Shown piece after piece: positions 3,347-39,382 of a DNA stretch of 56,455 nucleotides. The translations under genes were made by a program, and so were the position numbers. The notes beneath the pieces are model-generated. The model was not told the origin of the DNA. It worked only from the letters and a program-made list of their open reading frames with translations, and ran no database searches. The stretch comes from a virus: IMG/VR virus record IMGVR_UViG_3300045988_124381; one strand, 5' to 3'. Each line of letters opens with the position of its first letter. The stretch's first letter is position 1.

Positions 3347-3405
3347 CATATCGAAACTAAGATACGAAACAAATATAGTAAAAACCTACTAAAAAGCACA
3401 CGATT

Positions 3406-3726
3406 ATGAAAAGAAATGTATTGCACGAGATTATGAGCCTTGCATGGCAATTTGTAAAACGCAATGGATTTACAATGAGTGAAGCGCTCAAATGCGCTTG
3501 GGCAAACATGAAGCTGAAGGCTGCCATGAAGCAAAAAATAGTAAAGTTCTACTTCAAGAAAGTTGACGGTTCTGTACGCGAAGCATACGGTACACTGAAA
3601 GAAAACCTGATACCAGCAACCAGCGGTGACAACAGAAAGAAGAATGACACCGTTCAGGTGTATTTCGATACAGAGAAACAAGAATACAGATGCTTTAAGA
3701 AAGCTAACCTTTTAAATATCGCATGA
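3406..3726 (+). CDS. SH3-like beta-barrel protein (DUF2693/WYL_2-like)
   Basis: VKFYFKKVDGSVREAYGTL resembles the signature of this family; first gene after the operator. Confidence 0.45.
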   Translation: MKRNVLHEIMSLAWQFVKRNGFTMSEALKCAWANMKLKAAMKQKIVKFYFKKVDGSVREAYGTLKENLIPATSGDNRKKNDTVQVYFDTEKQEYRCFKKANLLNIA

Positions 3727-3974
3727 CTATGAGAGCAACAGAAGTCAGTAACAAGTTAGATGAACTCTACAGAGAGTTAGAATCTGTTAGAGGCATGTCA
3801 GAATCAGAAGTTTGCAGCAAATACAATGCAGACTGCAAGCAAGACATTGAAGATATTATCGAAGAAGAAATAGAGGCGTTGAAGTCTTACGATTGCGATG
3901 ATTACAGCGAAGATGACGGTATGGACTACATCAACCTGCAACAGTCACAAGGATTGCCTGTAATATGCTGGTAA
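3723..3974 (+). CDS. Acidic hypothetical protein
   Basis: Start overlaps the upstream stop; no recognisable motif. Confidence 0.45.
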   Translation: MTMRATEVSNKLDELYRELESVRGMSESEVCSKYNADCKQDIEDIIEEEIEALKSYDCDDYSEDDGMDYINLQQSQGLPVICW

Positions 3975-4349
3975 CAAATATACCCTGCTGACGGACTGAA
4001 CGGCAACCGATAGCGAGAATCGGGCAGGGTTCTACTTGATTGGTTCTTTGACATGATGGAAATTTTAGGCTTACCGTTAAGCCTGACGTGAAACGGACGA
4101 CTGAGTAGCGATAACGGCTGGGTGAAAAGAGTATGAGTAATGGACTGCACTAAGCAAACGCAGCATACGAATCACACAGATAACAAAAACGACTTATACG
4201 ATTGCAGGTGGCCGTAGGCCGGCTACAAAGACAATCTTCACTGATTAGACACCAGCAAGAACTATATATCCCGTGGCTTATCAAAGGTTTGGTAAGCAGT
4301 AAGGCAACCACCGGAACGCCCACGGGGACGAATTTTAAAACGCACGATT

Positions 4350-4520
4350 ATGAAAAAACTTCTTTTTCTCTGTGCATTGTCTGTACTGGTGATGCACTTC
4401 AATCAAGACCTTTCACCTCTGTATTGGGTTGGTCTTATTGGATTTACATTAACAAGTATATTAATTGCAAAAAGATTAGATGATGAACGAGCTGCAAGAA
4501 ATAATAAAAAGCATCTGTGA
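4350..4520 (+). CDS. Small membrane protein (56 aa), below the ORF-track cutoff
   Basis: Hand translation MKKLLFLCALSVLVMHFNQDLSPLYWVGLIGFTLTSILIAKRL...; ATG lies within a CACGATTATG copy. Confidence 0.45.
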   Translation: MKKLLFLCALSVLVMHFNQDLSPLYWVGLIGFTLTSILIAKRLDDERAARNNKKHL

Positions 4521-4653
4521 TGACTTCGCAGACATCAATGCTATACTGGCAGCTCGTTCTCGTGAGCTTGACAGAAGAATTGCTTTTGATGAAGAGATAA
4601 GTGAACAGATTAATTCAATATTAAAATCAAGGAAAGATGAAAAAAGGAGATAA
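4480..4653 (+). CDS. Small hypothetical protein (57 aa)
   Basis: Hand translation MMNELQEIIKSICDDFADINAILAARSRELDRRIAFDEE...; overlaps both neighbours. Confidence 0.4.
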   Translation: MMNELQEIIKSICDDFADINAILAARSRELDRRIAFDEEISEQINSILKSRKDEKRR

Positions 4654-4783
4654 GGTTAAGACATGGGTTTCAACACAGATTGGAACGGTCAAAAAGGTAT
4701 TAAGCAATGGTAGGGTTGTAGTCGTATTCAAAGGCTCTAAAGTAGAATATGAGCTTGATCCTTTTATGGTGAAATTGGTATAG
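4637..4783 (+). CDS. Small hypothetical protein (48 aa)
   Basis: Hand translation MKKGDKVKTWVSTQIGTVKKVLSNGRVVVVFKGSKVEYELDPFMVKLV. Confidence 0.4.
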   Translation: MKKGDKVKTWVSTQIGTVKKVLSNGRVVVVFKGSKVEYELDPFMVKLV

Positions 4784-4813
4784 TCATACTTTTAAAAAAT
4801 AGTGAATGGGTAA

Positions 4814-4842
4814 GTGTCGGGCTGTGAGGTTCGGCACTTTTT
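4814..4842 (+). terminator. Rho-independent terminator-like hairpin
   Basis: 9-bp stem including G-U pairs (gtgtcgggc/gttcggcac), 6-nt loop, ttttt. Confidence 0.55.
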
Positions 4843-4844
4843 AT

Positions 4845-4920
4845 TGGCAGATAGTTCAGGCGGTAGAACACCATGTATGGGTTAGCATGGAAGTCACGGG
4901 TTCAAGTCCCGTTCTGTCAG
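4845..4920 (+). tRNA. tRNA-like gene with canonical acceptor, D and T arms but an enlarged anticodon loop (8-10 nt); isotype undetermined
   Basis: tggcaga ta gttc aggcggta gaac a ccatg tatgggttag catgg aagtc acggg ttcaagt cccgt tctgtca g; U1:A72 and G73. Confidence 0.6.
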
Positions 4921-4942
4921 CAAACAATCAAATACTAAAACT

Positions 4943-5185
4943 ATGGTAAGAGAAATTACAGTAGACGAAAACTACCAGACAGTACGGCTGTTTGACGCAA
5001 TGAAGAAAGGGGACATCTACAAGGTTCCCTACGACAAGAAACGGCATAACGGAATCAAGCTGGAAGCCTCACGCCGCAATCGTGACCTCCGGCTGATCGG
5101 GATCTTAAAGAATAAAATGGACGTGAAGTACAGGGTATCGGCAACAGAATATCCGGGCTTCTCAGCAATTATCTGCTTAAAATAA
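4943..5185 (+). CDS. Hypothetical protein
   Basis: ORF in a same-strand array; no recognisable motif. Confidence 0.45.
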   Translation: MVREITVDENYQTVRLFDAMKKGDIYKVPYDKKRHNGIKLEASRRNRDLRLIGILKNKMDVKYRVSATEYPGFSAIICLK

Positions 5186-5191
5186 ACGCTT

Positions 5192-5398
5192 ATGATAAAT
5201 GAGGAAGTTTTGAAGATTGTTTTGAATGACAAGACTTTTGGGCGTGACACCGCTGCTGATATTGTAGGCGGTCTGTCACGATTGAGAGAGTTGGTAGGGC
5301 AAGGGCTTGTAAGGGCAGAAAAGCCTAGCAACAAGCAAAACGGAAAGTGGTTTTGCAACGCTTGGGATGTGATTAAACATGCGAAATTGAAATATTAA
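5192..5398 (+). CDS. Hypothetical protein
   Basis: ORF in a same-strand array; no recognisable motif. Confidence 0.45.
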   Translation: MINEEVLKIVLNDKTFGRDTAADIVGGLSRLRELVGQGLVRAEKPSNKQNGKWFCNAWDVIKHAKLKY

Positions 5399-5414
5399 TT
5401 TAAAAAATCATATT

Positions 5415-6350
5415 ATGAGTTTGATTAAGAAATCTAATGAATTGGTAATTCCTTCCACCGTTAAGATGATGATTTACGGTCAGGCAGGTATGGGTAAGAC
5501 AACAGTAGCTTTGAGTGCACCTAAACCATTATTACTCGACTTTGATAATGGTGTGAAACGTGTAAATATGGCTCATCTTGACGGTATAGACATCGTTCAG
5601 GTAAGTTCATGGCAGGATGTTCAACAAGTATTACAGGAAGATCTTTCGTCTTATCAGACAATCGTAGTGGACACTATCGGTAAGATGATGGATTTTATTA
5701 TCTCTTATAAATGTGGAACTAGGCAGCCGCAAATTAAGGATTGGGGCGGCATCAACGCTGAGTTCTCATGGATGACACGCACTCTTTCATCATTGAATAA
5801 GAATGTAGTGTTTGTAGCTCATAGGGATACACGAAAAGAGGGGGACGATACGGTATTTATCCCTGCTTTGCGAGAGAAATCCTATAATTCTATTGTGACA
5901 GAACTCGATTTGCTTGGGTATTTGGAAATGCGTAACGAAAACGGCGTGCAGAAGCGTACAATCACGTTTGATCCGACATCAAGGAACGACGGTAAGAATA
6001 CCTGTAACCTGCCCGGATTGATGCAGGTTCCAACGATACTTGACCGAAACGGAAATCCAACTGCCAAAAATGACTTCATTACCTCAAAGGTGATTGTACC
6101 CTATCTTAACATGTTGCAGGTAAAGAAAGAAGAAGCTGCAAAGTATGATAAGGTGATTGCTGAAATCAGGGAGAACATTGAACTTATTACTGATGCCAAT
6201 TCTGCAAATGAGTTTGCGTCAAGAATTAATGAGTTTGAGCATGTAGGCAGTTCCTTGAATATGGCCAGAAATCTGTTTTCAGCAAAAGTAAAAGCTCTCG
6301 GGCTGGTATTCGACAAAGAGACAAAGACCTATGCAGACAAAGCAGCCTAA
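5415..6350 (+). CDS. AAA_24 / Sak4-like RecA-fold ATPase
   Basis: Walker A MMIYGQAGMGKTT, Walker B-like IVVDTIG; sits upstream of nuclease and SSB as in phage recombination modules. Confidence 0.75.
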   Translation: MSLIKKSNELVIPSTVKMMIYGQAGMGKTTVALSAPKPLLLDFDNGVKRVNMAHLDGIDIVQVSSWQDVQQVLQEDLSSYQTIVVDTIGKMMDFIISYKCGTRQPQIKDWGGINAEFSWMTRTLSSLNKNVVFVAHRDTRKEGDDTVFIPALREKSYNSIVTELDLLGYLEMRNENGVQKRTITFDPTSRNDGKNTCNLPGLMQVPTILDRNGNPTAKNDFITSKVIVPYLNMLQVKKEEAAKYDKVIAEIRENIELITDANSANEFASRINEFEHVGSSLNMARNLFSAKVKALGLVFDKETKTYADKAA

Positions 6351-7101
6351 ATTCAAGTTCTATGCTACACTTTTGGATGCCTTTACAAGCTATCTGAAAA
6401 GTGATGCCATTTGGGAAAGGTATTGGGGATTCAGTGAGAATCCCCCACATACCCCCGAAGAGTTCAGACAGCAGCAGTTTCAGAGTCTGATTGACACTAT
6501 AAACCGTATTCCGTTTGATAGTGAAGCAGCCGACAAGGGAACGGCTTTCAATGAGGTGATAGACTGTATGATTGAAAACAGGAGATCAGAAAAGGTACAG
6601 GTGGAAAGACTACTGTCAGACATGCAGGATGGCAGACAAACATTGGTCGGACTGAGAGCCACCTATAAATGCCGTCAGTTCGATTTCCCTATCTCAATCT
6701 GCCGTGAGTTTGCAGACTATTACAAAGGAGCCTTAACCCAGCAACGGGTTGAAGCAGTTTTGCCTACATGTTTCGGAGGAATTCTTCTATATGGTTATAT
6801 AGATGAACTGATGCCGATGTCAGTACATGACATCAAGACTACCGGAAGTTATTATGTAGGTAAGTACAAAGACCACTGGCAGCACATGGTTTATCCATAC
6901 TGTCTGATGCAGGGCGGCAGCGATGTCAGGATGTTCGAGTATAACATCACGGACTTTCGTGCGACCTATACCGAAAGCTATACTTTCGTTCCCGAACGAG
7001 ATATTCCCATCCTCACTAACCATTGTGAGGACTTTATACGGTTCTTGAATGACAACAGAGATTTGATAACCGATAAGAAAATTTTTGCAGAAGATGAGTA
7101 A
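6331..7101 (+). CDS. PD-(D/E)XK (RecB/Cas4-like) nuclease
   Basis: GYIDEL...VHDIKT and QHMVY (QxxxY) motifs. Confidence 0.65.
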   Translation: MQTKQPKFKFYATLLDAFTSYLKSDAIWERYWGFSENPPHTPEEFRQQQFQSLIDTINRIPFDSEAADKGTAFNEVIDCMIENRRSEKVQVERLLSDMQDGRQTLVGLRATYKCRQFDFPISICREFADYYKGALTQQRVEAVLPTCFGGILLYGYIDELMPMSVHDIKTTGSYYVGKYKDHWQHMVYPYCLMQGGSDVRMFEYNITDFRATYTESYTFVPERDIPILTNHCEDFIRFLNDNRDLITDKKIFAEDE

Positions 7102-7540: not shown

Positions 7541-7543
7541 CCT

Positions 7544-7984: not shown

Positions 7985-7996
7985 AATTTTGAGATT

Positions 7997-8182
7997 ATGA
8001 AAAAAAGAAAATTTCCCCAAGATGTAGCAAGATTCTTTAATCCAGAGAAGTCAATTAATCCTAATTCAAGCGGCATTCATCAAAGAGAGAAGGCCTTACA
8101 AAGAAGTTTCATCCCTGTTTATAATGGTATGGGTACCGCTAAAAAGATTTATAATAGGTTCGGTGTAAAAAGTTATAGATAA
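7997..8182 (+). CDS. Small basic hypothetical protein
   Basis: ORF in the array; Lys/Arg-rich. Confidence 0.4.
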   Translation: MKKRKFPQDVARFFNPEKSINPNSSGIHQREKALQRSFIPVYNGMGTAKKIYNRFGVKSYR

Positions 8183-8184
8183 TT

Positions 8185-8616: not shown

Positions 8617-8618
8617 TT

Positions 8619-9356: not shown

Positions 9357-9381
9357 TTGACAGCCCGGAAAGACGGGCCCT

Positions 9382-9485
9382 GGTATCGTGGCGGAACTGG
9401 TAGACGCTATGCTCAACGATTGGACGGTCAATCCATAGATGCAAAGAACTGACAACTCATGCAGGTTCGAATCCTGCCGGTACCA
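9382..9485 (+). tRNA. tRNA-like element with Leu-type D arm and canonical T arm/acceptor but a 53-nt non-canonical central region
   Basis: ggtatcg tg gcg gaactggtaga cgc ... gcagg ttcgaat cctgc cggtacc a. Centre holds nested helices ctatg/catag and gattg/caatc and a ctcaac stretch. Confidence 0.45.
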
Positions 9486-9504
9486 CAAACTAAAATTATG
9501 AATT

Positions 9505-12230: not shown

Positions 12231-12815
12231 ATGGAACAGATAGATTTCAGACAAACAATCGAAAGGCTGAAGGATACGGGGTTTTCACCTGTACCGAATA
12301 CGGTAGAAATTTCTATTCCGGATGCAAAGAATGTTTTAAGGGCTGGTATTAAATACTTCACGGGGGAGAATGCCAGATGGCTTCCGGAGTATGAAGAGGT
12401 TGCAAACTGGTTGGCCGGCAATGGAGGTCGTGGGCTGTTGTGTTTCGGCAATTGTGGAAGAGGGAAGACCCTTATTTGCGGAAGGATTGTTCCTCTGATC
12501 CTGAATCATTATTGCCGGAAGGTGGTAAGCTGCTACGATGCACAGCAGATGAACGCTGATCTGGACGCTGTGAAGCAGAAGCATATCATCTACGTCGACG
12601 ATATAGGGATAGAGAATTTAAGTGTGAAATACGGCGAAAGAAGGCTTGCTTTTGCAGAGTTGGCAGACGAGGCTGAGAAGAAAGGGAAACTTCTTATCCT
12701 GACTACTAACCTGTCGATTGATGAGTTGAGAGAAAAGTACGGTGAGAGAACCATCGACCGTTTGAAAGCTATAACCAGAACCGTATTGTTCAGCGGTGAA
12801 AGCCTACGAAAATGA
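12231..12815 (+). CDS. DnaC/IstB-like AAA+ helicase loader
   Basis: Walker A GNCGRGKT, Walker B IIYVDDIG. Confidence 0.7.
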   Translation: MEQIDFRQTIERLKDTGFSPVPNTVEISIPDAKNVLRAGIKYFTGENARWLPEYEEVANWLAGNGGRGLLCFGNCGRGKTLICGRIVPLILNHYCRKVVSCYDAQQMNADLDAVKQKHIIYVDDIGIENLSVKYGERRLAFAELADEAEKKGKLLILTTNLSIDELREKYGERTIDRLKAITRTVLFSGESLRK

Positions 12816-19821: not shown

Positions 19822-20178
19822 ATGAAACACATATTCTACGCCTTAATCATTCTGCAAGCCCTGTACGAGCTTGTGAAGCTGTTTAGATGTAAATCCCTTT
19901 ACCGGCATGTGAAAGTATTCCAGAAGCTGGATAAGGCATCAAAAAAATGGTATCTGATGGCGCATCCGTGGTTTCATGTTGCGCTGCTTATAGATACTAT
20001 CGGGATTTTACTTTTGGGTATAGGATTGTTTTCAAGTCAATGGGTGTGTTTCCTCATTATCTTGGCCATGAGTTTTAGTCAGATCCAAAAGCTAGGAGCA
20101 TGGGCGGTATTTCTGGACAGCCTGATTACGGTCATCATCTACGTATTTGCCATCCTTAACGCATATCATTTGTCATAA
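19822..20178 (+). CDS. Membrane protein (3-4 TM)
   Basis: Multiple hydrophobic helices. Confidence 0.5.
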   Translation: MKHIFYALIILQALYELVKLFRCKSLYRHVKVFQKLDKASKKWYLMAHPWFHVALLIDTIGILLLGIGLFSSQWVCFLIILAMSFSQIQKLGAWAVFLDSLITVIIYVFAILNAYHLS

Positions 20179-20272
20179 AACAAAAAAAGGGAGCCAGCCC
20201 ACACGATTAGAAGCCAACTCCCACACACGATTATGATGCAAATATACTAATTCATTCTAAAACTATCGAACT

Positions 20273-20710
20273 ATGACAAAAGAATTTTCATCAATCGTGG
20301 AGTTGAAATCTATACGTGAACAGAAATCAAGATTATCGGAAAGAGAGCAGGAGCTTTCGTTACCAGTCCTGACTGATCTGTCGCTTATTCCGGAGATTTA
20401 CGGCTGGTTCAAGGAGATCCTTTCCGGGATGGACTGCCCTCCCAATCCTGAGAGCGTTACTCAGCGGAAGAAGTTCCTCTTCATCGTTCTGTTCCTGTTC
20501 GCCCCCAGCGTGCTGGCCGGCGGACGGCTGCCGAACGGTATCCGGGCAGAAATTTCCGGTGTGTTCCCGGATGTCTCCCCATGTGTAATATCGAACAATA
20601 TCGCCGATGTTTCCTTTATTTACCAGCAATATAAGGATTTCAGGCAGGATATAGAGTATCTTTACAATCAGATTTTAGAAAGGTTGAAAGTCAAAGAACT
20701 GATCAAGTAA
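20273..20710 (+). CDS. Hypothetical protein
   Basis: ORF in the array; central hydrophobic stretch. Confidence 0.45.
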   Translation: MTKEFSSIVELKSIREQKSRLSEREQELSLPVLTDLSLIPEIYGWFKEILSGMDCPPNPESVTQRKKFLFIVLFLFAPSVLAGGRLPNGIRAEISGVFPDVSPCVISNNIADVSFIYQQYKDFRQDIEYLYNQILERLKVKELIK

Positions 20711-22380: not shown

Positions 22381-22674
22381 TTAAACATCCATTTCCAATA
22401 ACTTTCTTAAATCCTCAAACGAGTGAACTTCATAAATAGTTCCTTTTACTTTTACAAAGCCGTTCACTTCGGAATCAGGTGTATTTCTTACAAATAGCTC
22501 CGAAATATCCACCTCTAAAGCATTTGCAATACGTTCTAAAGATTGTAATTGCGGATAATCACCTCTTAATGTCTTATTAAGACTAATATCAGATATACCC
22601 ATCTTATCAGCCAAATCTTTTTGAGTAAGACCCTTAGACTGGCAAAGTTCTTTTATCCTTGTTCTAAAATCCAT
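22381..22674 (-). CDS. XRE-family HTH transcriptional regulator
   Basis: GLTQKDLADKMGISDISLNKTLRGD helix-turn-helix. Confidence 0.75.
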   Translation of the reverse strand: MDFRTRIKELCQSKGLTQKDLADKMGISDISLNKTLRGDYPQLQSLERIANALEVDISELFVRNTPDSEVNGFVKVKGTIYEVHSFEDLRKLLEMDV

Positions 22675-22704: not shown

Positions 22705-22864
22705 GGTGTTTATACTATATAATACAATAAAGAGTGAAAAATAAATCCAAGTAGTTTTATTATTAACATAAATTAAGTATGCAAATATTGCGTAATTAAA
22801 CTATATAGTATTACTTTGTACTATCAAATAAAACGAAGTAGTATAATTTTTAATACGCACGATT

Positions 22865-23063
22865 ATGAAAGAGTATCAAGACGCAACTGTTGAATGTAAA
22901 AAAAATAATATGCAACCCATGTGCATTAGATGAGTACGAAGTCACTATAAGGCCTACTAATGGTAAGCCTGAATATGTAACATACACTTATGGTAGTCTA
23001 TTTGAGAGCAATGAATCTATCTGTGATAGAATTTATCGTCAATGGATAAAAGAGAGTAAGTGA
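22865..23063 (+). pseudogene. Small gene interrupted by a +1 frame change at an A8 tract (22898-22905)
   Basis: ATG in a CACGATTATG copy. Frame stops at 22931. The next frame continues CNPCALDEYEVTIRPTNGKPEYVTYTYGS... to 23063. A7 would give one 65-aa ORF. Confidence 0.45.
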
Positions 23064-23130
23064 TAAGTTTAACCAGCAGGGCGAAAGCCCTGCAATTACA
23101 CACGATTATTAATTTTTAATACACACGATT

Positions 23131-23997
23131 ATGAAGACATTAAAAGAACAAGTAGAAGAAATCAAGAACATGAAAGGTTCTAAGTCAGCAAAGAAAGCAG
23201 CTTTCGTCAAGTTGGGTTTGAGAAAGTACGAAGTTGAACTTCTTATGTCTGAACTGCCTAAGACTATCAGAGAAACGCACAAGTTTACTTTTGGCGTTGA
23301 GATTGAATGCCTGGTAGCTGCAAACCTTATGCGTGAATGTGCTACAAGAAATGAAATGCCTTTTCGCTATGAGGGCTACAACCACACAGACAACAACCAC
23401 TACTACAAGTTTGTATCTGATTCTTCTATTAGAGGTGAAAATCCTATAGAATGTGTTTCACCGGTTCTTACTGGTAAGGCAGGTATGAAAAGCCTAGAAA
23501 CCTGCTGCAAAGCTTTAAATGAGGCAGGTGCACAAGTGAATATATCTACTGGTTTACACGTTCACATAGGGGCTGCAAGCCTCTCAGATGAAGCTTATAT
23601 CAATGTTTTCAAGAACTATCAGAAGCTAGAGAGAGTGATTGATACTTTCATGGCACGATCAAGACGAGCAAACAACAGTCAGTGGTGCAGAACACTTCAA
23701 GGTTTAAGCTTTGAATGTTGCATTACTAAGCATGATGTTCTAAGTATTATGAGAGGTAATAGATATTTTAAGGTTAATGCCTGCTCTTATGCTCGTCACA
23801 ACACGATAGAGTTCAGGCAGCATCAAGGTTCTACAGATTTCGAGAAAATTTCTAACTGGGTGAATTTCTGTGCTAAGCTAGTAGCTTGGTCTAAGAAGAA
23901 CGTACTAAGTTCAGAGGTTTTTTCAATTGCAGAAATACCTTTCTTGACAGCGAAAGAAAAGTCATTCTTTAAATCACGTGCTGAGGTTCTTGCATGA
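23131..23997 (+). CDS. Amidoligase_2 family (glutamine-synthetase-like COOH-NH2 ligase)
   Basis: FGVEIE, IECVSPVL, STGLHVHIG, NTIEFRQHQGS signature blocks. Confidence 0.8.
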   Translation: MKTLKEQVEEIKNMKGSKSAKKAAFVKLGLRKYEVELLMSELPKTIRETHKFTFGVEIECLVAANLMRECATRNEMPFRYEGYNHTDNNHYYKFVSDSSIRGENPIECVSPVLTGKAGMKSLETCCKALNEAGAQVNISTGLHVHIGAASLSDEAYINVFKNYQKLERVIDTFMARSRRANNSQWCRTLQGLSFECCITKHDVLSIMRGNRYFKVNACSYARHNTIEFRQHQGSTDFEKISNWVNFCAKLVAWSKKNVLSSEVFSIAEIPFLTAKEKSFFKSRAEVLA

Positions 23998-24527
23998 ACC
24001 TCACACGATATAATTTGCTTGATATGTGCTGTATTATTTATAAACCAAAAGGTGTCCAGATGCCAACGCTGGACATCTTAAATAAGGTTCAGAGAATCAA
24101 TCATCATGGTTATGGCTTTGTTTCTTCTAAGCATAGATATAAGACTATGGATTATCAAAAGTTTTTAGTTCATCTTTCAAAGGTGGGTATTGAAGAAGAA
24201 TGTATCATTCACATGAGGTGGGCAACACATGGTTCTAAGTGTAGAAAGAACTGTCACCCGTTTGTCGAGAATGGCGTTTATTTTGCTCACAATGGTGTTT
24301 TGCCTATTCAGTCAGTAAACGATATGACAGATAGCGAAATCTTCTTCAGAAATCAAGTTTACCCTCTTGTAATGAAATATGGGTATGAAGCAAAGGTAAC
24401 AGAATCCATGATGATGGCTGTCGCTGGCAGTTCTAAATTCGCCATGATGTACAAAGGCAAAGTAAAGCTATATGGTGATTATACGAAATTGAACGGTGTA
24501 TATTATTCTAATTTAAGATGGCTATGA
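23994..24527 (+). CDS. Class II (Ntn) glutamine amidotransferase
   Basis: MCCIIYK (Cys nucleophile after Met at 24024, or after a 10-aa propeptide if ATG 23994 is used), NHHGYGF, HMRWATHGS, NCHPF, FAHNGVL, TDSEIFF. Confidence 0.75.
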   Translation: MNLTRYNLLDMCCIIYKPKGVQMPTLDILNKVQRINHHGYGFVSSKHRYKTMDYQKFLVHLSKVGIEEECIIHMRWATHGSKCRKNCHPFVENGVYFAHNGVLPIQSVNDMTDSEIFFRNQVYPLVMKYGYEAKVTESMMMAVAGSSKFAMMYKGKVKLYGDYTKLNGVYYSNLRWL

Positions 24528-25514: not shown

Positions 25515-25587
25515 CGCGGGTTAGAGCAGTGGTCAGCTCGTCACTTTGACTTGGTGAAGGCCGGTGGTTCGAATCCACCACCCGCAA
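25515..25587 (+). tRNA. tRNA with anticodon GAC (Val) on an initiator-tRNA-like scaffold
   Basis: cgcgggt ta gagc agtggtca gctc g tcact ttgactt ggtga aggcc ggtgg ttcgaat ccacc acccgca a. C1xA72 mismatch, A11:U24; close to E. coli tRNA-fMet outside the anticodon arm. Confidence 0.75.
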
Positions 25588-25618
25588 CGAAATATTAACT
25601 TATAAATTTTACACGATT

Positions 25619-25978
25619 ATGGAAATACTTACGCTTATCATCAAACAGAAGTTCTTTGACGAAATCTTGTCAGGTAAGAAAACTCAAGAGTTCAGAGAGA
25701 TTAGACCTACAACTCAGAAGAAATACTGCCAACTGGATGCCGATGGTTATTGTGTCGAAATAGACGGCATTTTACAGCCCCGACACTATGATGCTATTCA
25801 GTTCTTTGTAGGCTACAATAAAGACAGATCCAGTGCATTGGTTGAAGTCAAAGACGCAAAGATCGAATTGTTTGAAGATGAGAATCACAATTTAATTGAG
25901 TACACCTGTCAGGGCGAAATATACTTGGCCGCACAGGTCGTTTATGACCTTGGCCGAGTGATAGAAAAGCATGTTTAA
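25619..25978 (+). CDS. ASCH (PUA-like) domain protein
   Basis: ILTLIIKQKFFDEILSGKKTQEFREIR N-terminal ASCH pattern. Confidence 0.6.
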   Translation: MEILTLIIKQKFFDEILSGKKTQEFREIRPTTQKKYCQLDADGYCVEIDGILQPRHYDAIQFFVGYNKDRSSALVEVKDAKIELFEDENHNLIEYTCQGEIYLAAQVVYDLGRVIEKHV

Positions 25979-26161: not shown

Positions 26162-26832
26162 TGACACTGCAAGAGAGAACATACAGCTATATTGACCTCG
26201 TCAGACAAAAGACTGACGGGGTTTTGCTGTTTCTGTCCTTGGGTAAGGATTCTTTAGTATTACTGGATATGATCTATCCGAAGTTTGAAAGGATAGTCTG
26301 CGTGTTCATGTACTTTGTTAAAGGTTTAGCGCACATCGAAAGATGGGTTGGATGGGTAAAAGCTAAATATCCGAAGATAGAGTTTGTTCAGGTGCCCCAC
26401 TGGAACCTTACTTACATTCTTCGTGGTGGGATGTATTGCGTGCCAAACCCGAAAGTAAAGCTTCTGAAACTGGCCGATGTGGTGAAGGCCATGCAACTCA
26501 AATACGGCCTTTACTACACGTTCTTGGGTATGAAGAAGGCCGACGGCATGAACCGTCGTCTTATGCTGAAAGGCTATGAAGTCAACGGATACGAGAACAA
26601 CAGTATGTGCTATCCTTTGGCAGATTGGACGCAGAAAGACATCCTGTCCTACATGAAGCAGAACGGGCTGCCGGAGCCTGTCCGGTATTCGCTGAAGGCC
26701 AGTTCGGGTGTAGGGTTCAATTTGGATTGTATGTTATGGCTGGAGAAGAACTACCCGCAGGACTTACAGAAAATTTACAAGGTGTTCCCAATGGCTGAAA
26801 GAATTCTTTGGGAACATAAACAAAAGCAATAG
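26161..26832 (+). CDS. PAPS reductase / PP-loop ATP pyrophosphatase family protein
   Basis: LLFLSLGKDS PP-loop, GMKKADGMNRR, CYPLADWTQKDILSYMKQNGLP. Confidence 0.8.
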   Translation: MTLQERTYSYIDLVRQKTDGVLLFLSLGKDSLVLLDMIYPKFERIVCVFMYFVKGLAHIERWVGWVKAKYPKIEFVQVPHWNLTYILRGGMYCVPNPKVKLLKLADVVKAMQLKYGLYYTFLGMKKADGMNRRLMLKGYEVNGYENNSMCYPLADWTQKDILSYMKQNGLPEPVRYSLKASSGVGFNLDCMLWLEKNYPQDLQKIYKVFPMAERILWEHKQKQ

Positions 26833-28677: not shown

Positions 28678-29942
28678 TTGTTCCTCAAGAAATATATCAT
28701 CCGTTATACACCGATTGTGAGAAGTTTATCATCCTTATCACCGGTGGCCGTGGATCGGGAAAGAGTTTCAACGCTTCTACCTTCATTGAGCGTTTGACGT
28801 TCGAAATGACTCCGGTGGAGAAGATTGTCCACCAGATCCTTTATACACGTTACACGATGGTATCTGCCGGCATGTCTATCATTCCGGAAATGATGGAAAA
28901 GATAGAGCTGGACGGAACCACGAAGTATTTCAAGACCACCAAGACGGACATCGTAAACCGGATGACTGGCAGTCGTATCATGTTCAGAGGTATCAAGACT
29001 TCTTCCGGAAATCAGACTGCCAAGCTGAAATCCATTCAGGGTATCACGACATTTGTCTGCGATGAAGCGGAGGAATGGACCAGTGAGGAAGAGTTTGACA
29101 AGATTATGCTCTCCATCCGTAAGAAGGGAATCCAAAACCGCATTATCATTATTATGAATCCCTGTGATTCGAACCATTTCATCTACAAGAAATACATCGA
29201 AAATACCCACCGACTGGTGGAGATTGACGGTGCTCAGGTTCAAATCTCAACTCATCCCAATGTTCTTCACATCCATACGACGTACTTCGACAATATCGAG
29301 AACCTTTCTCCTGAGTTCCTGAGAGAAGTCAAGGAGATGAAAGAGAAGAATCCGGAAAAATACGCTCATGTGGTTATCGGACGATGGGCAGACGTGGCTG
29401 AGGGTGCCGTGTTCAAGAAATGGGGTATCGTAGATGAGTTCCCAATGTGGTGCAAGAAGGTGGCTATCGGGCTGGATTTCGGTTATACCAATGATCCTAC
29501 AGCAGCTATCCGGTGCGGAATCATAGACAATGCACTATATCTGGATGAAATAGATTATAGAACTGGATTATTATCTGGGGATATTATAAAAACCTTGCGG
29601 CCTTGGAATCTGAGAGTGATTGCCGACAGTGCAGACCCGCGACTCATTCAGGAAATCCATAACGGAGGTATCAAGATTTATCCAGTAGAGAAAGGACAAG
29701 GTTCTGTCAATGCCGGTATAGACAAGATGCAGGGTATGGAAATTTTCATTACTAAACATTCTTATAACCTTCAACGGGAGTTCAGAAATTATGTATGGGC
29801 CAAGGATAAGGATGGAAACTATATCAACGAGCCAGAAGATCACGATAACCACGGTATTGATGCTGCTCGTTACTATGTGCTGGGAGAACTTCTCGGCAGG
29901 ATTATGAAACCGAAAGACATTTCAGGAGTATTTGGACATTAA
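28674..29942 (+). CDS. terL: Terminase large subunit (PBSX-like)
   Basis: Walker A ITGGRGSGKS, Walker B FVCDEAEE, C-terminal RNaseH-like nuclease acidic residues. Confidence 0.85.
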   Translation: MIVPQEIYHPLYTDCEKFIILITGGRGSGKSFNASTFIERLTFEMTPVEKIVHQILYTRYTMVSAGMSIIPEMMEKIELDGTTKYFKTTKTDIVNRMTGSRIMFRGIKTSSGNQTAKLKSIQGITTFVCDEAEEWTSEEEFDKIMLSIRKKGIQNRIIIIMNPCDSNHFIYKKYIENTHRLVEIDGAQVQISTHPNVLHIHTTYFDNIENLSPEFLREVKEMKEKNPEKYAHVVIGRWADVAEGAVFKKWGIVDEFPMWCKKVAIGLDFGYTNDPTAAIRCGIIDNALYLDEIDYRTGLLSGDIIKTLRPWNLRVIADSADPRLIQEIHNGGIKIYPVEKGQGSVNAGIDKMQGMEIFITKHSYNLQREFRNYVWAKDKDGNYINEPEDHDNHGIDAARYYVLGELLGRIMKPKDISGVFGH

Positions 29943-33782: not shown

Positions 33783-33785
33783 TTT

Positions 33786-34681: not shown

Positions 34682-34699
34682 AGAAAGGAGGACTAATAT

Positions 34700-35803
34700 A
34701 TGATGCTAACCATTCATACACTTTTCAATGACCCGAACATCGTGAACGCAGTCATTCAGCGCGTCCTTCAGACACGTAAGGATGCTATCTATTGGCAGCA
34801 GTATCTCACGTTCCGCCGCACAACAACCCGTGTATTCAAGGACTACATCGGTACGGTAACAGGAGTTATGGCAGGTTCCATCAACTCACGCTATGGTGCT
34901 AAGCCTATCCGTGAGCGTAGGGAAATCGGCTCGGGGTATGGTGAAATCGCCTACTTGGGCGACCGCTACCAAATCTCCATTGACCGCCTTAGCGACTTGC
35001 AGGACTTGGTGGACAAGTACAACGCCGCCAAGACAGCCGACCAGGTGCAGGCTATGCGTGAAATCGTGGACTTCATCTACGACGATTACCGCCAGGCACT
35101 CCTTGCCGCCCACAAGCGCATGGACATCGTGGTAGGCTCGTTGCTGATGACCGGAAAAGCTACGGTGAAGAACAAGGACGACAATGCCGCCGGAGTGGAC
35201 TTGCTGAATATCGAACTCCCGTTCAAGGTCATCACTCCAACTTCTGGTGACAAGACGAACTTCATCACCTACCTGCAACAGCAAATCAATGCGTTGGCTC
35301 CGGACTACGGCGTGTTCCCGAAGATGATTATGTCCCGTGGTACGTTTGTCAAGAACATCATCGGCTCGGCAGAGTTCGGCGACAAGTTTAAGATGCAGCT
35401 TTCCGGCAATGAGATGTACCTCTCCACCGGATTGATTACATCGCAGCTGGCATCGCAGGTGTTCACAGGCATCGGGCTTCCGGCCATCGAAATCAAGGAA
35501 GACTACGTGAAAGACCAGACGGGAAAGAACGTGGCCATCTATGCCGACGACCGCATCACCCTCTTGCCGCAAGACCGTATTGGCTACATGCGTTGGCACA
35601 CTCCGTATGAAGCCACAGACCCGACGCCCGGACGCAACTATTCCGGTACGGACGATGACAGGACTGGTTCAAACGGAGGTATGCTGATTTGTGGCTACAA
35701 GGACGACAACGGACGTTATCTTGAATACACTGCAGAGTGGATTCCACAGATCACAAATCCGAACTTGATTGTTAACTTCGATTTGACAACAATGAACGCA
35801 TGA
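34700..35803 (+). CDS. Major capsid protein (gpE-like)
   Basis: Size, position and strong aaggagga upstream; N-terminus resembles the major capsid protein E family. Confidence 0.6.
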   Translation: MMLTIHTLFNDPNIVNAVIQRVLQTRKDAIYWQQYLTFRRTTTRVFKDYIGTVTGVMAGSINSRYGAKPIRERREIGSGYGEIAYLGDRYQISIDRLSDLQDLVDKYNAAKTADQVQAMREIVDFIYDDYRQALLAAHKRMDIVVGSLLMTGKATVKNKDDNAAGVDLLNIELPFKVITPTSGDKTNFITYLQQQINALAPDYGVFPKMIMSRGTFVKNIIGSAEFGDKFKMQLSGNEMYLSTGLITSQLASQVFTGIGLPAIEIKEDYVKDQTGKNVAIYADDRITLLPQDRIGYMRWHTPYEATDPTPGRNYSGTDDDRTGSNGGMLICGYKDDNGRYLEYTAEWIPQITNPNLIVNFDLTTMNA

Positions 35804-36114
35804 TAGCAAAAGACTACATATCACAGAAGTTTCAGACCTTCGGCATTAATTTGTCGGAGGCTGACCTTTTGGAGATAAGTCTGTCTTCAGAGATAAGCGG
35901 AGAGGATGAGATGGACCAGTCAAACATCGGTTTCGTGTCGGTAGCTATGGCGAAGTTCATCCCCTCTCTATTACTTAAAGCCACTTCAATCAGCGAGAAC
36001 GGTTTCTCTATGTCTTGGAATATTCAAGGTGTAAAGGAATATTACTCGTTTTTATGTAAGAAGTACGGACTTGAAGACACTCTGTCAGATAAACCTAAAG
36101 TCAGATTCCTATGA
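35800..36114 (+). CDS. Putative head-tail connector (gp6-like)
   Basis: Position and size; overlapping starts. Confidence 0.4.
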   Translation: MIAKDYISQKFQTFGINLSEADLLEISLSSEISGEDEMDQSNIGFVSVAMAKFIPSLLLKATSISENGFSMSWNIQGVKEYYSFLCKKYGLEDTLSDKPKVRFL

Positions 36115-36434
36115 TATTTGCTCCACATACATTACAAGTTAAGGTTACTACTTCGATGGAAGAAGACGAGTTCGGCCGGCCTATTCCAGAAACAGGTGGT
36201 GAAAGCTGGCAGGACGTGTGTAGGTGCCGATGCGACGACAACTCTACCAAAGAGTTTACTTCGGAGAACGGTGAAGTGTATCGACCGAATTACCACGTAG
36301 TATGTGAGAAGAAAATCTCTCTGAAGGCTGGTGATGAAGTCAGATGTATGGATGGTGAGAATGTTAGAGGAGCAGGCAAGGTTTATATGGTAAAAAATAC
36401 TAACTATTTTGGATACTCAGAGATATGGCTGTAA
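36111..36434 (+). CDS. Putative head closure / head-tail adaptor
   Basis: Position and size. Confidence 0.4.
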   Translation: MIFAPHTLQVKVTTSMEEDEFGRPIPETGGESWQDVCRCRCDDNSTKEFTSENGEVYRPNYHVVCEKKISLKAGDEVRCMDGENVRGAGKVYMVKNTNYFGYSEIWL

Positions 36435-36721
36435 AGTTTGATTTTTCGGATGTGGATAGCTTTTTCGAGCAAGGTTATGCAGAGGTGAAAGCTATTGAGG
36501 AAAAAGTAGGAAAGGAAGCTGTCGATTACGCTGTGAAGAATGGCAACTATCAGAACCGGACCGGAACACTCCGTAAGTCAAACAAATATTCAGTTCAAGA
36601 TGACGGACTGGAGTTAAGGAATGAAGCCGAATACGCTTCGTTCGTAGAATCCAAAGGATACGAGGTCCTGACTGGTGCAGCCCTATTTGCTGAGAAACGA
36701 TTGAAGGAGGAAATCAAATGA
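36425..36721 (+). CDS. HK97 gp10-like head-tail joining protein
   Basis: NRTGTLRKSN motif and AEYASFVE typical of the gp10 family. Confidence 0.55.
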   Translation: MAVKFDFSDVDSFFEQGYAEVKAIEEKVGKEAVDYAVKNGNYQNRTGTLRKSNKYSVQDDGLELRNEAEYASFVESKGYEVLTGAALFAEKRLKEEIK

Positions 36722-37014
36722 AACGAATATTCAAGTATGAATTGATTGTAGCAAACCATTCAAAATTATGCCTACCTGTAGGAGCAAAAATATTATCTGT
36801 TCAAGCACAACGAGATACTGTTTGTTTATGGGCATTAGTAGATGAATGTCAAAAAGATTTATGCTTAGTGGACATTTTTATGTATGCAACAGGGCAAAAT
36901 GTTTCTGATAAAGACTTGGAAGATAAAAGATTTGCCGGGACTGTTCAACTTGATGAACTGGTTCTTCATGTATTCCTTCAGTATGAAAATAATATTCAAT
37001 ATTTGATTGTATGA
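36718..37014 (+). CDS. Conserved prophage beta-rich small protein inserted within the head-tail genes
   Basis: IFKYEL...LPVGAKILSVQAQ...LWALVD...LHVF pattern seen in many prophages. Confidence 0.4.
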   Translation: MKRIFKYELIVANHSKLCLPVGAKILSVQAQRDTVCLWALVDECQKDLCLVDIFMYATGQNVSDKDLEDKRFAGTVQLDELVLHVFLQYENNIQYLIV

Positions 37015-37403
37015 TAGTAACCACCGACATAGCGAACATACTTTACCGTGATTGCCAGTCTTTCGGCATATCCATCGTTCCCCACGGAAAGAAGTTGACG
37101 GGTGAATTGAAATCCGAAAGGATCGTCATTCACGCTAAAAAGCAGCAACCTGAAACGTACTGGAAGAAGTCTTTCGTGGAAGTGAACCTTTGTGTTCCAG
37201 ACCTGAAAGAAGGTGAAGCCAACACCATCCGGCTGAACGAACTTGAAAAACAGGCTCAAAAGCTGTTTGACGGCGTAACCGGACGCTATGACGGTACCAC
37301 CTATCATTATTCCATCGATACAATCGGAACTGAGGAGGACACATCCTTAAAGTGTCATTATGTGAATGTAAGAATTTTGTTTGAAGTTTTAAATGTGAAA
37401 TAA
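37011..37403 (+). CDS. Putative tail terminator / tail completion protein
   Basis: Position directly upstream of the major tail gene. Confidence 0.4.
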   Translation: MIVTTDIANILYRDCQSFGISIVPHGKKLTGELKSERIVIHAKKQQPETYWKKSFVEVNLCVPDLKEGEANTIRLNELEKQAQKLFDGVTGRYDGTTYHYSIDTIGTEEDTSLKCHYVNVRILFEVLNVK

Positions 37404-37404
37404 T

Positions 37405-37956
37405 ATGGCAGAAGCAAAGAAAATCACAGCCGTGAATATCAAAAAACTTTTATATGGAGAAACAAGCGGGATTTCCGCGGATTTGACAGGACAGGCTTTG
37501 TACACTCTTTTGCAAGGTGACACATTGAAAGAAGTTAAAAATATTCATGGCGACACATGGACGCTTGAAGAAGCGGAAGCAAGCCGAACCAATTATAAAA
37601 ATCAGCTCACGGGTCAGACCTATCGCAGTGAAAAGGAAATGGGCGACGTGACCGTCAACTTTACGATTGGTGAATACGACTATCCGACGAAGAAAGACCT
37701 TATGGGTGGTGATGTTATCAACACTGATAAAGGCTGGAAGCGTGCAAGGGGCAAGGTGAACATCGAAAAGTTGATTGTTGCCCTGACCGAAGACGACCAG
37801 TATTGCGTCATTCCCCGCGCAGATATCGGGGCTCGTGAAGCGACTACAGATAAGGCTATTGGGCTTCCGGTGAGTGCTGTAGAACTTGAGCCGAAAGACT
37901 CCGCTATCGCTCCAGAATACTGGTTTGATTCCGAAGAGGTAAAAGCTGGCATGTAA
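37405..37956 (+). CDS. Major tail protein
   Basis: Position upstream of the chaperone pair and tape measure; followed by a terminator-like hairpin. Confidence 0.5.
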   Translation: MAEAKKITAVNIKKLLYGETSGISADLTGQALYTLLQGDTLKEVKNIHGDTWTLEEAEASRTNYKNQLTGQTYRSEKEMGDVTVNFTIGEYDYPTKKDLMGGDVINTDKGWKRARGKVNIEKLIVALTEDDQYCVIPRADIGAREATTDKAIGLPVSAVELEPKDSAIAPEYWFDSEEVKAGM

Positions 37957-38034
37957 TGCCTATCCGATAGGTAGAGATTATATTCCATAACAGGGGTGGG
38001 CTTTATGGCTTCACCCCCTTAATTATTTTTTTAC

Positions 38035-38418
38035 ATGAATCAAGGTGCAAAAATCATATCAGAATCCATTATTGGCGGTGATTTCAGAACGGTATTTGTT
38101 GGAGGAAAAGCTTATACTGTCTATCCGCCTACAATCTATAAGTTAGTCGGAGCTATCTCCCATCTGTCAGACGTACAAGAGGCCGAAAACTTGAAAAATG
38201 TTCTGCTCTCCTTGGGAGAAAGCGAGGCTTATTCCAAGGCATTATCCTGGCTGATTACAGGTGATGAAAGTTTGAGTGAGGAGTTAGCTAAAGGAACATA
38301 TGAAGAAAATGTGAACGCATTAGATGAAGCCTTTTCCATGATTGATTCAAAGGTTTTTCTCAAAGCTGTCAGCTTGGCGAGGAACGTAAGCCTGCTGGCA
38401 GCGAAACCGAGGTTGTAG
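38035..38418 (+). CDS. Tail assembly chaperone (G-like)
   Basis: Position upstream of the tape measure; -1 frame overlap with the next ORF. Confidence 0.55.
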   Translation: MNQGAKIISESIIGGDFRTVFVGGKAYTVYPPTIYKLVGAISHLSDVQEAENLKNVLLSLGESEAYSKALSWLITGDESLSEELAKGTYEENVNALDEAFSMIDSKVFLKAVSLARNVSLLAAKPRL

Positions 38419-38615
38419 GAAATGATACTCTCTTGGGACAGATTGCGTCGTTCATGGAAAACCTGCATCTGTCATACCGGGAAGTGGTCTACGAGATATC
38501 ATACAGGAATTTAGTATTAATGCAGCGCGATAAGCTCCATACCGTTACCGGGACCAAGGTTACAAAGGTGAAGGGTAAGGATATGGCTTCGCGCAGAAGA
38601 AGAAACAAGAAATAG
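38346..38615 (+). CDS. Tail assembly chaperone -1 frameshift extension (T-like)
   Basis: Frame -1 relative to 38035-38418 is open from 38346; T5 run at 38354-38358; basic C-terminus. Confidence 0.45.
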   Translation, partial: FKGFSQSCQLGEERKPAGSETEVVGNDTLLGQIASFMENLHLSYREVVYEISYRNLVLMQRDKLHTVTGTKVTKVKGKDMASRRRRNKK

Positions 38616-38674
38616 ATATGGCTCTATTAGAATGTTAAAAAGCAACAGAAACGTTACTTTTTTACGTTACAAAG

Positions 38675-38706
38675 TTTGCTTAATAGTAACGAAAATGTTA
38701 CCTTTG
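38675..38706 (+). promoter_or_regulatory. Promoter TTTG-N20-TACCTTTG for hicAB-2 with ACGTTAC/GTAACG repeats
   Basis: -7 region tacctttgcat is identical to the hicAB-1 promoter. Confidence 0.6.
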
Positions 38707-38733
38707 CATTGTCAATTAAAAGTTCTTTGATTT

Positions 38734-38919
38734 ATGAAGTTTTCAGAGTTTTACAAATTGATTGAGTCAGCAGGCTGGACAATCGAAAAGGGAAAGAAAC
38801 ATCACAAGTATGTTCATCCCGACTTTGACTACTTTATCCCTGTAGGCAGACATCCGGCCAAAGAGATACCTAAAGGTACTCTTGACAGCATGATGAAAAA
38901 GGCGGGGTTAAAGAAGTAA
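38734..38919 (+). CDS. hicA: HicA-family toxin
   Basis: GWTIEKGKKHHKYVHPDFDYFIPVGRHPAKEIPKGTLDSMMKKAGL. Confidence 0.8.
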   Translation: MKFSEFYKLIESAGWTIEKGKKHHKYVHPDFDYFIPVGRHPAKEIPKGTLDSMMKKAGLKK

Positions 38920-38977
38920 AAGAACAGCACCCACTTCGGTGGGTGCATTTAATTGACAAAACTTAAAATACACGATT

Positions 38978-39382
38978 ATGAAGAAGATTCAGGCTATTAT
39001 TGAAAAAGCAGATGATGGAGGAATCTCTATCTATTCTGAAGATGTAAACGGTGCGTATGGCTTTGGGCTTACAGAACAAGAAGCGAAAGAGGACTTTATT
39101 TCTGTTTTAGAGGAACAGGCAGAATATTACAAAGAAAAACATGGTGAATTTCCAAGTTGGTATAAAGCTGGCTATTCTGTGGAGTATGTGTATGACTTAA
39201 GTGGATTTTTTGAGGCATTTCCGTTCATCAATGCCAGTAAGTTCGCAAAGGAAATAGGTTTAAATGAATCTGTGATGCGAAAATATAAAGGCAAGATCGT
39301 AACAGCTTCCGAGAAACAGAAAGCATATATACAATCCAAATACAATGAAATTCTTAAAAGAATGGAACTTGTCAAGTTTTGA
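38978..39382 (+). CDS. hicB: HicB-family antitoxin
   Basis: IQAIIEKADDGGISIYSEDVNGAYGFGLTEQEAKEDF N-terminal HicB fold pattern. Confidence 0.6.
   Translation: MKKIQAIIEKADDGGISIYSEDVNGAYGFGLTEQEAKEDFISVLEEQAEYYKEKHGEFPSWYKAGYSVEYVYDLSGFFEAFPFINASKFAKEIGLNESVMRKYKGKIVTASEKQKAYIQSKYNEILKRMELVKF

Follow-up and report, generated by a model that had tools for sequence, protein, structure and literature searches.

A predicted small RNA gene and complementary start-codon boxes in a Bacteroides-type temperate phage

The 56,455-nucleotide (nt) viral DNA IMGVR_UViG_3300045988_124381 from IMG/VR (here called the window, meaning this whole stretch) is a temperate Bacteroides-type phage or prophage in which the 10-mer CACGATTATG recurs seven times, each copy ending in an ATG, which raises the question of what recognizes a site placed across start codons. 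A sequence-only reading of the window had suggested a translational regulator or RNA-binding protein, by analogy with the operators of T4 RegA, or alternatively a processing site or a recombination junction. The operator-like nature of the site, which spans the AUG, was upheld by our analysis, but its likely partner is an antisense small RNA rather than a protein: opposite one of the seven copies, the minus strand carries a predicted RNA gene whose 5′ end is complementary to the other six.

Scans of both strands placed exact copies of CACGATTATG at positions 3399, 4343, 20226, 22858, 23124, 25612, and 38971, all on the plus strand, against an expectation of 0.16; none of 100 dinucleotide-preserving shuffles reached seven. 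These are the seven 10-mers listed by the sequence-only reading, each ending in the ATG given for it. Allowing up to one mismatch gave 11 matches where 3.4 were expected; a near copy at 23101 is one of them, and two others, at 29099 and 29897, lie within a long open reading frame (ORF) and look like chance. Three near copies had also been reported, of which CACGATTATT at 23101-23110 and CACGATTAG at 20202-20210 were confirmed; the third (cacgatat) is weak and lies at 24004-24011, one base away from the position given for it. The box overlaps the ATG and contains no Shine-Dalgarno sequence, which is missing from most genes of the window. Since starts of the form (A/G)ATTATG are common in the window, with ATT ATG alone being a frequent context, the distinctive part of the motif is CACG at −7 to −4, or R-CACG at −8 to −4.

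Enrichment and strand preference extended to related phages. Around 80 amidoligase homologs on viral contigs (1.45 Mb), CACGATTATG was found 201 times on the gene strand and once on the opposite strand, and it was nearly strand-exclusive across approximately 4 Mb of related viral contigs. Over all loci collected, the motif was followed by an ORF of at least 30 amino acids in 297 of 304 complete ORFs (98%), which represent 22 protein families, including a TIR-domain protein and DUF3560. At the amidoligase start itself, the motif was exact in 71 of the 80 loci, while the sequence upstream belonged to at least five unrelated types, with different promoters or with a hairpin and near copy. The remaining loci carried C-7 to T (two), A-6 to G (one), two changes (one), or no motif (five). 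When orthologous starts were defined by identical first five codons, the 7-mer that includes C-7, C-5, and G-4 was exact in 187 of 201 unique contexts.

The Bacteroides salyersiae phage BS-TP2 is the one relative in culture, and a distant one, with 76% DNA identity confined to head genes. It contains eight exact copies of the motif, all on the plus strand. Five lie at annotated starts (DUF2693, LuxR-type HTH, DNA methyltransferase, HicB, and ASCH), so that some of its box genes differ from those served in the window; one further copy is in frame, 8 codons inside an annotated start, and three additional starts carry ACGATTATG. The motif is thus kept at orthologous starts of relatives, as the sequence-only reading had implied for a functional element, and constitutes a lineage-wide, start-locked signal for non-structural genes. 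The earlier statement that no structural gene carries the motif also held. Together, these data support a conserved, strand-specific regulatory site locked to the start codons of non-structural genes.

Real ORFs open at six of the seven exact copies. The copy at 20226, which had been counted as the start of a 5-codon mini-ORF, opens only 4 to 5 codons (MMQI[Y]) in every relative, a length that also led us to reject the mini-ORF as part of a type I toxin-antitoxin system. On the minus strand, the sequence within 20270-20170 reads TATATTTG CATCATAATCGTGT GTGGGAGTTGGCTTCTAATCGTGTGGGCTGGCTCCC TTTTTTTGTTTT. The first element, at 20239-20246, perfectly matches TAnnTTTG, which PMC7366714 cites as the −7 consensus for the primary sigma factor in Bacteroides; a −33 element was not evident 5′ of it. 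It is followed by CAUAAUCGUG, in which the bases at 20226-20235 are the exact complement of CACGAUUAUG. The region at 20225-20238, CAUCAUAAUCGUGU, is a single-stranded 5′ seed that is unpaired in the minimum-free-energy fold, so that the unpaired 5′ end of the RNA reads CAUAAUCGUGU, the exact complement of the motif. A terminator hairpin of 12 to 13 bp occupies 20189-20222, with a second UAAUCGUG in its loop (approximately 20203-20209), and the near copy seen on the plus strand at 20202-20210 is the complement of this loop. A U-run, UUUUUUUGUUUU, at 20177-20188 ends the RNA and is present on the minus strand only.

Most likely, these elements make up the gene for a small RNA of approximately 50 nt, transcribed from the minus strand at about 20237-20181, and promoter geometry would place the transcription start within CAUCA. 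The predicted RNA folds at −16.9 kcal/mol (z of −2.6), with its first 14 nt unpaired. Rfam 15 returned nothing beyond noise for 20100-20350 even at E ≤ 10, GibS scoring 17.9 bits where 115 are required. Because the 20226 copy is the template of the small RNA seed, the seven served ORFs of the sequence-only reading become six target sites and one regulator gene.

Conservation of the locus follows the RNA and not its surroundings. Scanning viral contigs with TTTGCATCATAATCGTG identified at least 120 contigs with one copy each, and pooling these matches with other loci yielded 58 sequence variants. Across these, the stretch from the −7 box through CATCATAATCGTGT is nearly invariant, while both flanks are unrelated. 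Of the 58 variants, 57 retain the −7 box and the other is a copy that a 1-nt deletion has truncated; one contig from the seed-unbiased scans described below has TATATTATG in place of TATATTTG. The hairpin arms fall into approximately seven quite different types, all of which pair, and the loop holds (A/G)(A/G)UCGUG in every variant. Full-length variants have a T-rich run after the hairpin, beyond which the lineages are again unrelated. Hairpin-anchored contig scans, which are unbiased with respect to the seed, recovered the standard seed in 119 of 121 type-B contigs.

Covariation of the hairpin was evaluated with nine variants of symmetric 13+6+13 geometry in a loop-anchored alignment of equal lengths. 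All 117 cells of this set were paired, compared with 33 to 51% when partners were slid, and 12 of the 13 pairs had changed on both sides in a compensatory manner. The covariation score was 1.00, as opposed to 0.31 for shuffles and 0.08 to 0.28 for slid controls. An earlier attempt with RNAalifold on a plain MAFFT alignment of 24 RNA variants found no structure because unrelated stems were misaligned, and it was replaced by the loop-anchored alignment. Folding also distinguished the strands in most of the variants tested. Hairpin energies on the minus strand ranged from −17 to −24 kcal/mol among the variants tested; specifically, 7 of 11 variants contain 5 to 7 G·U pairs and fold at −17 to −22 kcal/mol on the minus strand versus −3 to −8 kcal/mol on the gene strand.

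Several copies of the RNA gene showed rearrangements. In two loci (L065 and L085), a deletion between two AATCGTGTGGG repeats removes the 5′ arm of the hairpin; another copy (L130) has its seed triplicated, and one (L101) has an additional 5′ hairpin.

The target side was examined in 78 non-redundant contexts. Position −8 is a purine in 76 of them, as expected under pairing, since the invariant U of the RNA (after CGUG) can form either A-U or G·U. Pyrimidines occupy position −9, which lies opposite a G or A of the RNA, in 63 of the contexts, and purines occupy position +4 in 74; positions −12/−13 are A-rich, which is general Bacteroidetes start context. The A/T-rich upstream context noted by the sequence-only reading is present but loose, with the informative positions being the purine at −8, the pyrimidine at −9, and A at −12/−13. 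The BS-TP2-type loop GGUCGUG still pairs with CACGAUU through two G·U wobbles, and a search for separate CACGACC targets matching this loop found none beyond the RNA gene itself. Substitutions at orthologous boxes were few, with four wobble-preserving changes, two pair-breaking changes, and two transversions.

The first 16 nt of the RNA were then scanned for duplexes along the window on either strand. The cis copy scored −26.2 kcal/mol, and the best trans sites were five of the targets, at −19.4 to −21.8 kcal/mol, where the background was −5.8 ± 2.5 kcal/mol; the sixth, at 25612, fell within the top eight sites of the scan. An unpaired, conserved seed is thus complementary to six mRNAs of the window at their translation starts.

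These six targets lie on the plus strand, and the gene assignments made earlier from sequence were confirmed. The box at 3399-3408 (seed duplex −21.0 kcal/mol) belongs to a WYL_2/DUF2693 SH3-like gene with its ATG at 3406, which is the first gene of the rightward early operon and faces a leftward operon containing a CI-like S24 repressor (1546-2244, minus strand); its BS-TP2 ortholog, gp17, also has the box. The box at 4343-4352 (−20.9 kcal/mol) serves a 56-amino-acid hydrophobic protein and closes a 375-nt non-coding stretch that contains a DUF2693-FD RNA. The box at 22858-22867 (−21.4 kcal/mol) opens a gene interrupted by an A8 run, the first rightward gene adjoining a divergent HTH_3 regulator, a second repressor-type gene (22381-22674, minus strand). 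An Amidoligase_2 gene starts at the box at 23124-23133 (−21.8 kcal/mol). The box at 25612-25621 (−16.6 kcal/mol) lies directly 3′ of tRNA-Val and serves phrog_625, an ASCH-like family that carries the ASCH annotation in BS-TP2 and is the largest target family in relatives (121 instances). Finally, the box at 38971-38980 (−19.4 kcal/mol) serves a HicB-like antitoxin; the HicA toxin gene just 5′ of it (38734-38919) has no box, and BS-TP2 gp43/gp44 are arranged alike. An integrase is encoded at 55092-56339 on the minus strand.

The sequence anatomy, strand, structural covariation, conservation of box and seed, and target spectrum of this system are direct observations. Overall, we favor, with a probability of about 0.7, the reading in which a trans-acting small RNA of the phage docks at the start-codon boxes of early and accessory genes and represses the translation of this regulon. 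In this mechanism, the 5′ end of the RNA would form an 11- to 12-bp duplex (−17 to −22 kcal/mol) over −8 to +3/+4 of each target, covering the AUG together with A-3 and A-6, which stand in for a Shine-Dalgarno sequence in Bacteroidetes; ribosome loading at the covered start would be blocked and translation repressed. The regulon would comprise the first gene of each rightward early operon, beside the two repressor-type regulators, together with stand-alone accessory genes and HicB. Given the housekeeping type of promoter, lysogens probably express the RNA; in them it would provide a second, post-transcriptional layer of immunity or an early shut-off, and it could act in trans on incoming relatives. 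Since only the antitoxin has a box, the RNA could also shift the HicA:HicB toxin-to-antitoxin ratio.

A number of observations weigh against this reading. For three type-D variants that contain only one G·U pair, the two strands fold almost equally well, and a variant with four G·U pairs (L094) is intermediate in strand preference. The nine variants of the covariation set were picked for pairing in the symmetric register, which inflates the figure of 100% paired cells but not the compensatory changes between types. The standard seed was present in only 139 of 165 type-A contigs from the hairpin-anchored scan, with the other 26 carrying a single substitution or a 1-nt insertion. The boxes in these 26 contigs are unchanged (CACGATTATG), and no co-variation of seed and target was seen; pairing is therefore not strictly required in every genome. 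Some genomes may tolerate a seed mismatch, or may carry decaying copies. C occurs at −9 in 44% of contexts when the RNA has G, compared with 21% when it has A, a weak trend that is confounded by phylogeny. Among complete genomes, co-occurrence of the RNA gene and boxes was covered for two, the window and BS-TP2. With A at −3 and −6, the motif also matches the general start context of Bacteroidetes, and efficient translation could account for part of its conservation. The existence of the small RNA, its expression and transcription start, its effect, the direction of that effect (repression and not activation), and its timing are what we infer from the features above.

Several of these points bear on other accounts of the box. 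The RNA 5′ end's perfect complementarity to the box is left unexplained if the box is instead bound by a protein, whether a RegA-type repressor or an RNA-binding protein such as the Sm-like WYL_2/DUF2693 product, with 20180-20246 being unrelated or a decoy. We consider such a protein reader unlikely, although the box, the same at all genes, extends across the AUG, the first target gene encodes a WYL_2 Sm-like SH3 protein in both complete genomes, the phage also carries the structured DUF2693-FD RNA, and a protein would more easily tolerate seed variants with unchanged targets. A decoy would need a plus-strand transcript, yet most hairpin types do not fold there, and it is the minus strand that carries promoter box and U-run. 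The purine at −8 and pyrimidine at −9 are as predicted by pairing with U and G and would be unusual for protein recognition. Pfam and PHROGs scans, which covered approximately 30 of approximately 86 ORFs of the window, annotated no RegA-like translational repressor among them.

Somewhat less probable again is that the box is simply an optimal stand-alone Bacteroidetes start region that spread with its leader by recombination and marks cassette junctions without any dedicated regulator. All copies do follow non-coding gaps, where translational coupling is unavailable, and A at −3/−6 and the A-rich −12/−13 match the Bacteroidetes context (PMC7366714). Recombination is suggested as well by the A8 gene, which is bracketed by two leader copies and missing from some relatives, and by the upstream regions of amidoligase genes, which are mosaics joining just 5′ of the leader. 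The general context, however, amounts to (A/G)ATTATG, and most genes of the window start without CACG; exact C-7, C-5, and G-4 in 187 of 201 contexts exceeds a compositional preference; and the conserved antisense RNA gene around the complement, with its second copy in the loop, would go unexplained. A DNA site, either an asymmetric stoperator of the Cluster A type or a recombinase site, appears very improbable. Such a site would agree with the asymmetry of the box, its single orientation relative to transcription, its mostly intergenic placement, and the two copies in divergent regions beside repressor-like genes. A fixed register with the ATG (297 of 304), which Cluster A stoperators do not share, has no rationale for a DNA site, however, the R/Y degeneracy at −8/−9 obeys wobble pairing, and the G·U-dependent hairpin indicates that the 20200 locus works as RNA. 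Two further ideas were rejected on inspection of the sequence and the known promoter rules of Bacteroides: that the box is complementary to the 3′ end of 16S rRNA, and that TAATAC is a sigma-70-like −10 element giving leaderless transcripts.

The distribution of the small RNA gene was also surveyed in species-representative genomes, where a 17-mer gave 65 matches against approximately 70 expected by chance (our own estimate for a 17-mer in 2 × 596 Gb). True copies of the RNA gene, recognized by the TATA prefix, hairpin, loop, and T-run, accounted for 17 of the 65, and all 17 keep the −7 box. They occur mostly in assemblies of Bacteroides, Phocaeicola, and Mediterranea, with a few in metagenome-assembled genomes labelled Prevotella/Prevotellaceae, Bacteroidetes, and, once, Lachnobacterium. 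The other 48 matches, in unrelated genomes, served as a negative control and had no TATA prefix, hairpin, T-run, or further boxes. Lytic B. fragilis phages (BF486P2 and relatives) matched the locus weakly, but only through promoter similarity before an ordinary gene, and this match was dismissed. In four of the amidoligase loci (L075, L076, L078, and L080), which represent one lineage, the amidoligase start is boxless (TTTAAATTATG) and the box of the ASCH gene is kept; the RNA gene was not seen in these four within the 5 to 10 kb of upstream sequence fetched.

Small phage RNAs that pair with phage mRNAs at or near ribosome-binding sites are known from P1/P7 (c4), P4 (CI), P22 (sar), and lambda (OOP). 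They are linked to lysogeny or immunity and act on one operon, often one that they overlap or are cut from; c4 and CI are processed from longer transcripts, and c4 has two repeated target sites. The logic of the candidate RNA is comparable to that of P1 c4, P4 CI, and P22 sar, but it has its own promoter box and a dispersed, box-defined regulon, with six targets here and up to 8 to 11 in BS-TP2, and the gene set varies between phages. T4 RegA is a protein that recognizes loosely conserved, AU-rich sites spanning the AUG of many early mRNAs and shuts them off post-transcriptionally. The box likewise spans the AUG of early genes, whereas it is an exact site and its candidate regulator is an RNA. 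In the promoter early stem-loop (PeSL) cassettes of T4-type phages, an early promoter is combined with stem-loops; these cassettes lie on either side of small accessory ORFs and go along with gene shuffling. Repeated leaders similarly bracket one ORF here, the A8 gene; unlike PeSL elements, the repeated unit lacks a TAnnTTTG −7 box and has a core in fixed register with the start codon, and only some of its copies follow a hairpin.

A closer parallel in pairing mode is GibS of B. thetaiotaomicron, whose conserved, single-stranded 5′ seed pairs with several mRNAs in their translation initiation regions (PMC7366714). GibS is chromosomal, approximately 145 nt long, and of the PM2 promoter class, with imperfect extended seeds and metabolic host targets; since it works in a genus without Hfq, it sets a precedent for the proposed pairing (PMC7366714). 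The two have in common the Bacteroides host genus, an own promoter, an intrinsic terminator, a 5′ seed, and independence of Shine-Dalgarno sequences and Hfq. They differ in that the candidate RNA is phage-borne and approximately 50 nt long, its identical 10- to 12-nt boxes lie on the AUG of the phage's own genes, and it has no sequence or Rfam relationship to GibS. The box itself is most similar in description to a repeat of Cluster K mycobacteriophages, the start-associated sequence (SAS), which is present in 11 to 19 copies in one orientation beside the start codons (mostly ATG) of non-structural genes (PMC3203893). SAS elements serve different gene families, are not found in the host genome, and have a partner, phage RNA or protein, that was left open (PMC3203893); their 13-bp consensus, GGGATAGGAGCCC, contains a Shine-Dalgarno core, lies 3 to 7 bp upstream of the start, and in some cases has extended inverted repeats (PMC3203893). 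The CACGATTATG box resembles SAS in its single orientation, its non-structural genes of varied families, and its retention across relatives. It is not a member of the SAS family, however, as its sequence is unrelated, overlaps the AUG, and is free of any Shine-Dalgarno sequence, and as a candidate gene for an RNA complementary to it can be named.

Bacteroidetes lack Shine-Dalgarno sequences and Hfq, and their post-transcriptional control is poorly understood; to our knowledge, only a few of their trans-acting small RNAs have known targets. The candidate RNA brings a clean, computable target set. Literature searches turned up no paper that presents either the 10-mer or its complementary sequence in such a setting; they likewise found no regulatory RNA described for temperate phages of gut Bacteroides, and the BS-TP2 and BV01/Salyersviridae papers mention neither motif nor RNA. 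As far as these searches reach, the candidate RNA is previously undescribed; functionally, it would be a phage-borne seed RNA of the GibS kind. If the proposed repression is real, it would explain how accessory genes come under phage control, supply a compact orthogonal RNA switch (a 12-nt box and an RNA of approximately 50 nt) for Bacteroides engineering, and offer a possible answer for the start-associated repeats of other phages, whose function has been open since 2011. BS-TP2 infects B. salyersiae BG8 and was reported in 33.5% of 930 metaviromes (PMC12694917); with a cultured and common phage at hand, the small RNA hypothesis is readily testable.

A broader proposal is possible but doubtful, namely that one RNA of approximately 50 nt constitutes a portable regulon, in which any cassette bearing the 12-nt box at its start would join the lysis-lysogeny or superinfection circuit, with DUF2693 and the DUF2693-FD RNA perhaps acting as chaperone or sponge and the BS-TP2-type neighbor gene being activated. 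If this were true, the invariant seed would mean RNA-based cross-immunity across very common Bacteroidaceae phages of the human gut. The DUF2693-FD RNA (Rfam RF02926, 76 bits) lies at 3982-4030 on the plus strand of the window and at 12753-12801 in the BS-TP2 locus (L081), just 3′ of the DUF2693/WYL_2 operon, and approximately 310 nt of non-coding sequence separate it from the box at 4343. In BS-TP2, a box copy immediately 5′ of this RNA (12731-12740) opens only a 10-codon ORF, and the small RNA may dock beside the DUF2693-FD RNA too. In the window, CACGAGATTATG at 3424-3439 (plus strand), inside the WYL_2 gene and 18 nt past its start, resembles a repeat of the box with a 2-nt insertion and gives a duplex of −16.2 kcal/mol; it may be chance.

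In BS-TP2, the locus of the predicted RNA lies at approximately 26600-26650. The plus-strand neighbor of the RNA gene in BS-TP2-type loci encodes the Bro-N protein gp42 and has AAUAAUCGUGUU directly before its AUG (L081, 26630-26700). This anti-box pairs with the cis box approximately 30 nt upstream and sequesters the gp42 start (−13.6 kcal/mol, z of −3.8). Read on the small RNA strand, its complement CACGATTA has a fixed position at −24 from the −7 box of the RNA in 103 of 186 loci; in the window (20219-20290, plus strand), the anti-box has decayed. Binding of the RNA to the cis box could activate a gp42-type neighbor gene.

Within the window, two copies of a leader of approximately 23 nt, AATTTTTAATAC(G/A)CACGATTATG, at 22841-22867 and 23107-23133 (plus strand), bracket the A8 gene, a hairpin, and the near copy at 23101-23110. 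In two relatives (L007 and L024), the A8 gene is absent and the amidoligase lies directly behind the first leader copy, so the region looks like a cassette inserted or deleted by recombination between leaders. The recombination junction proposed by the sequence-only reading finds secondary support at this gene, but recombination looks like a consequence of the repeated leaders and not the motif's purpose. The near copy, on the plus strand 14 nt 5′ of the amidoligase box and without a start codon, is kept as CACGATTAT(C/T) 3′ of the same hairpin in many relatives and is possibly a second, weaker pairing site or a recombination scar. The A8 interruption noted earlier lies at 22898-22905 (plus strand) and splits the gene starting at 22865 into frames 22865-22933 and 22890-23063; sequencing error, phase variation of the run, and programmed slippage are candidate explanations.

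Hairpins had also been noted 5′ of several copies, and structured elements were recovered there: hairpins with a GAAA loop at 23076-23093 and a UUCG loop at 38927-38946, and tRNA-Val at 25515-25588. The two tetraloop hairpins, GCAGGGC-GAAA-GCCCUGC and GCACCCAC-UUCG-GUGGGUGC, both on the plus strand, are very stable and have no clear U-run; they lie 25 to 45 nt 5′ of two boxes, are kept in relatives, and may serve in RNA processing or stability or terminate transcription weakly. The HicA/HicB module (38734-39382, plus strand) sits among tail genes, right before the tape-measure gene. Three tRNA-like elements were found on the plus strand, at 4845-4921, 9382-9485, and 25515-25588. The last is a clean tRNA-Val(GAC); the first was assigned a four-base anticodon (gggt) by ARAGORN and overlaps small ORFs; and the second, which ARAGORN did not call, is 104 nt long and clears Rfam's threshold for tRNA (36.5 bits).

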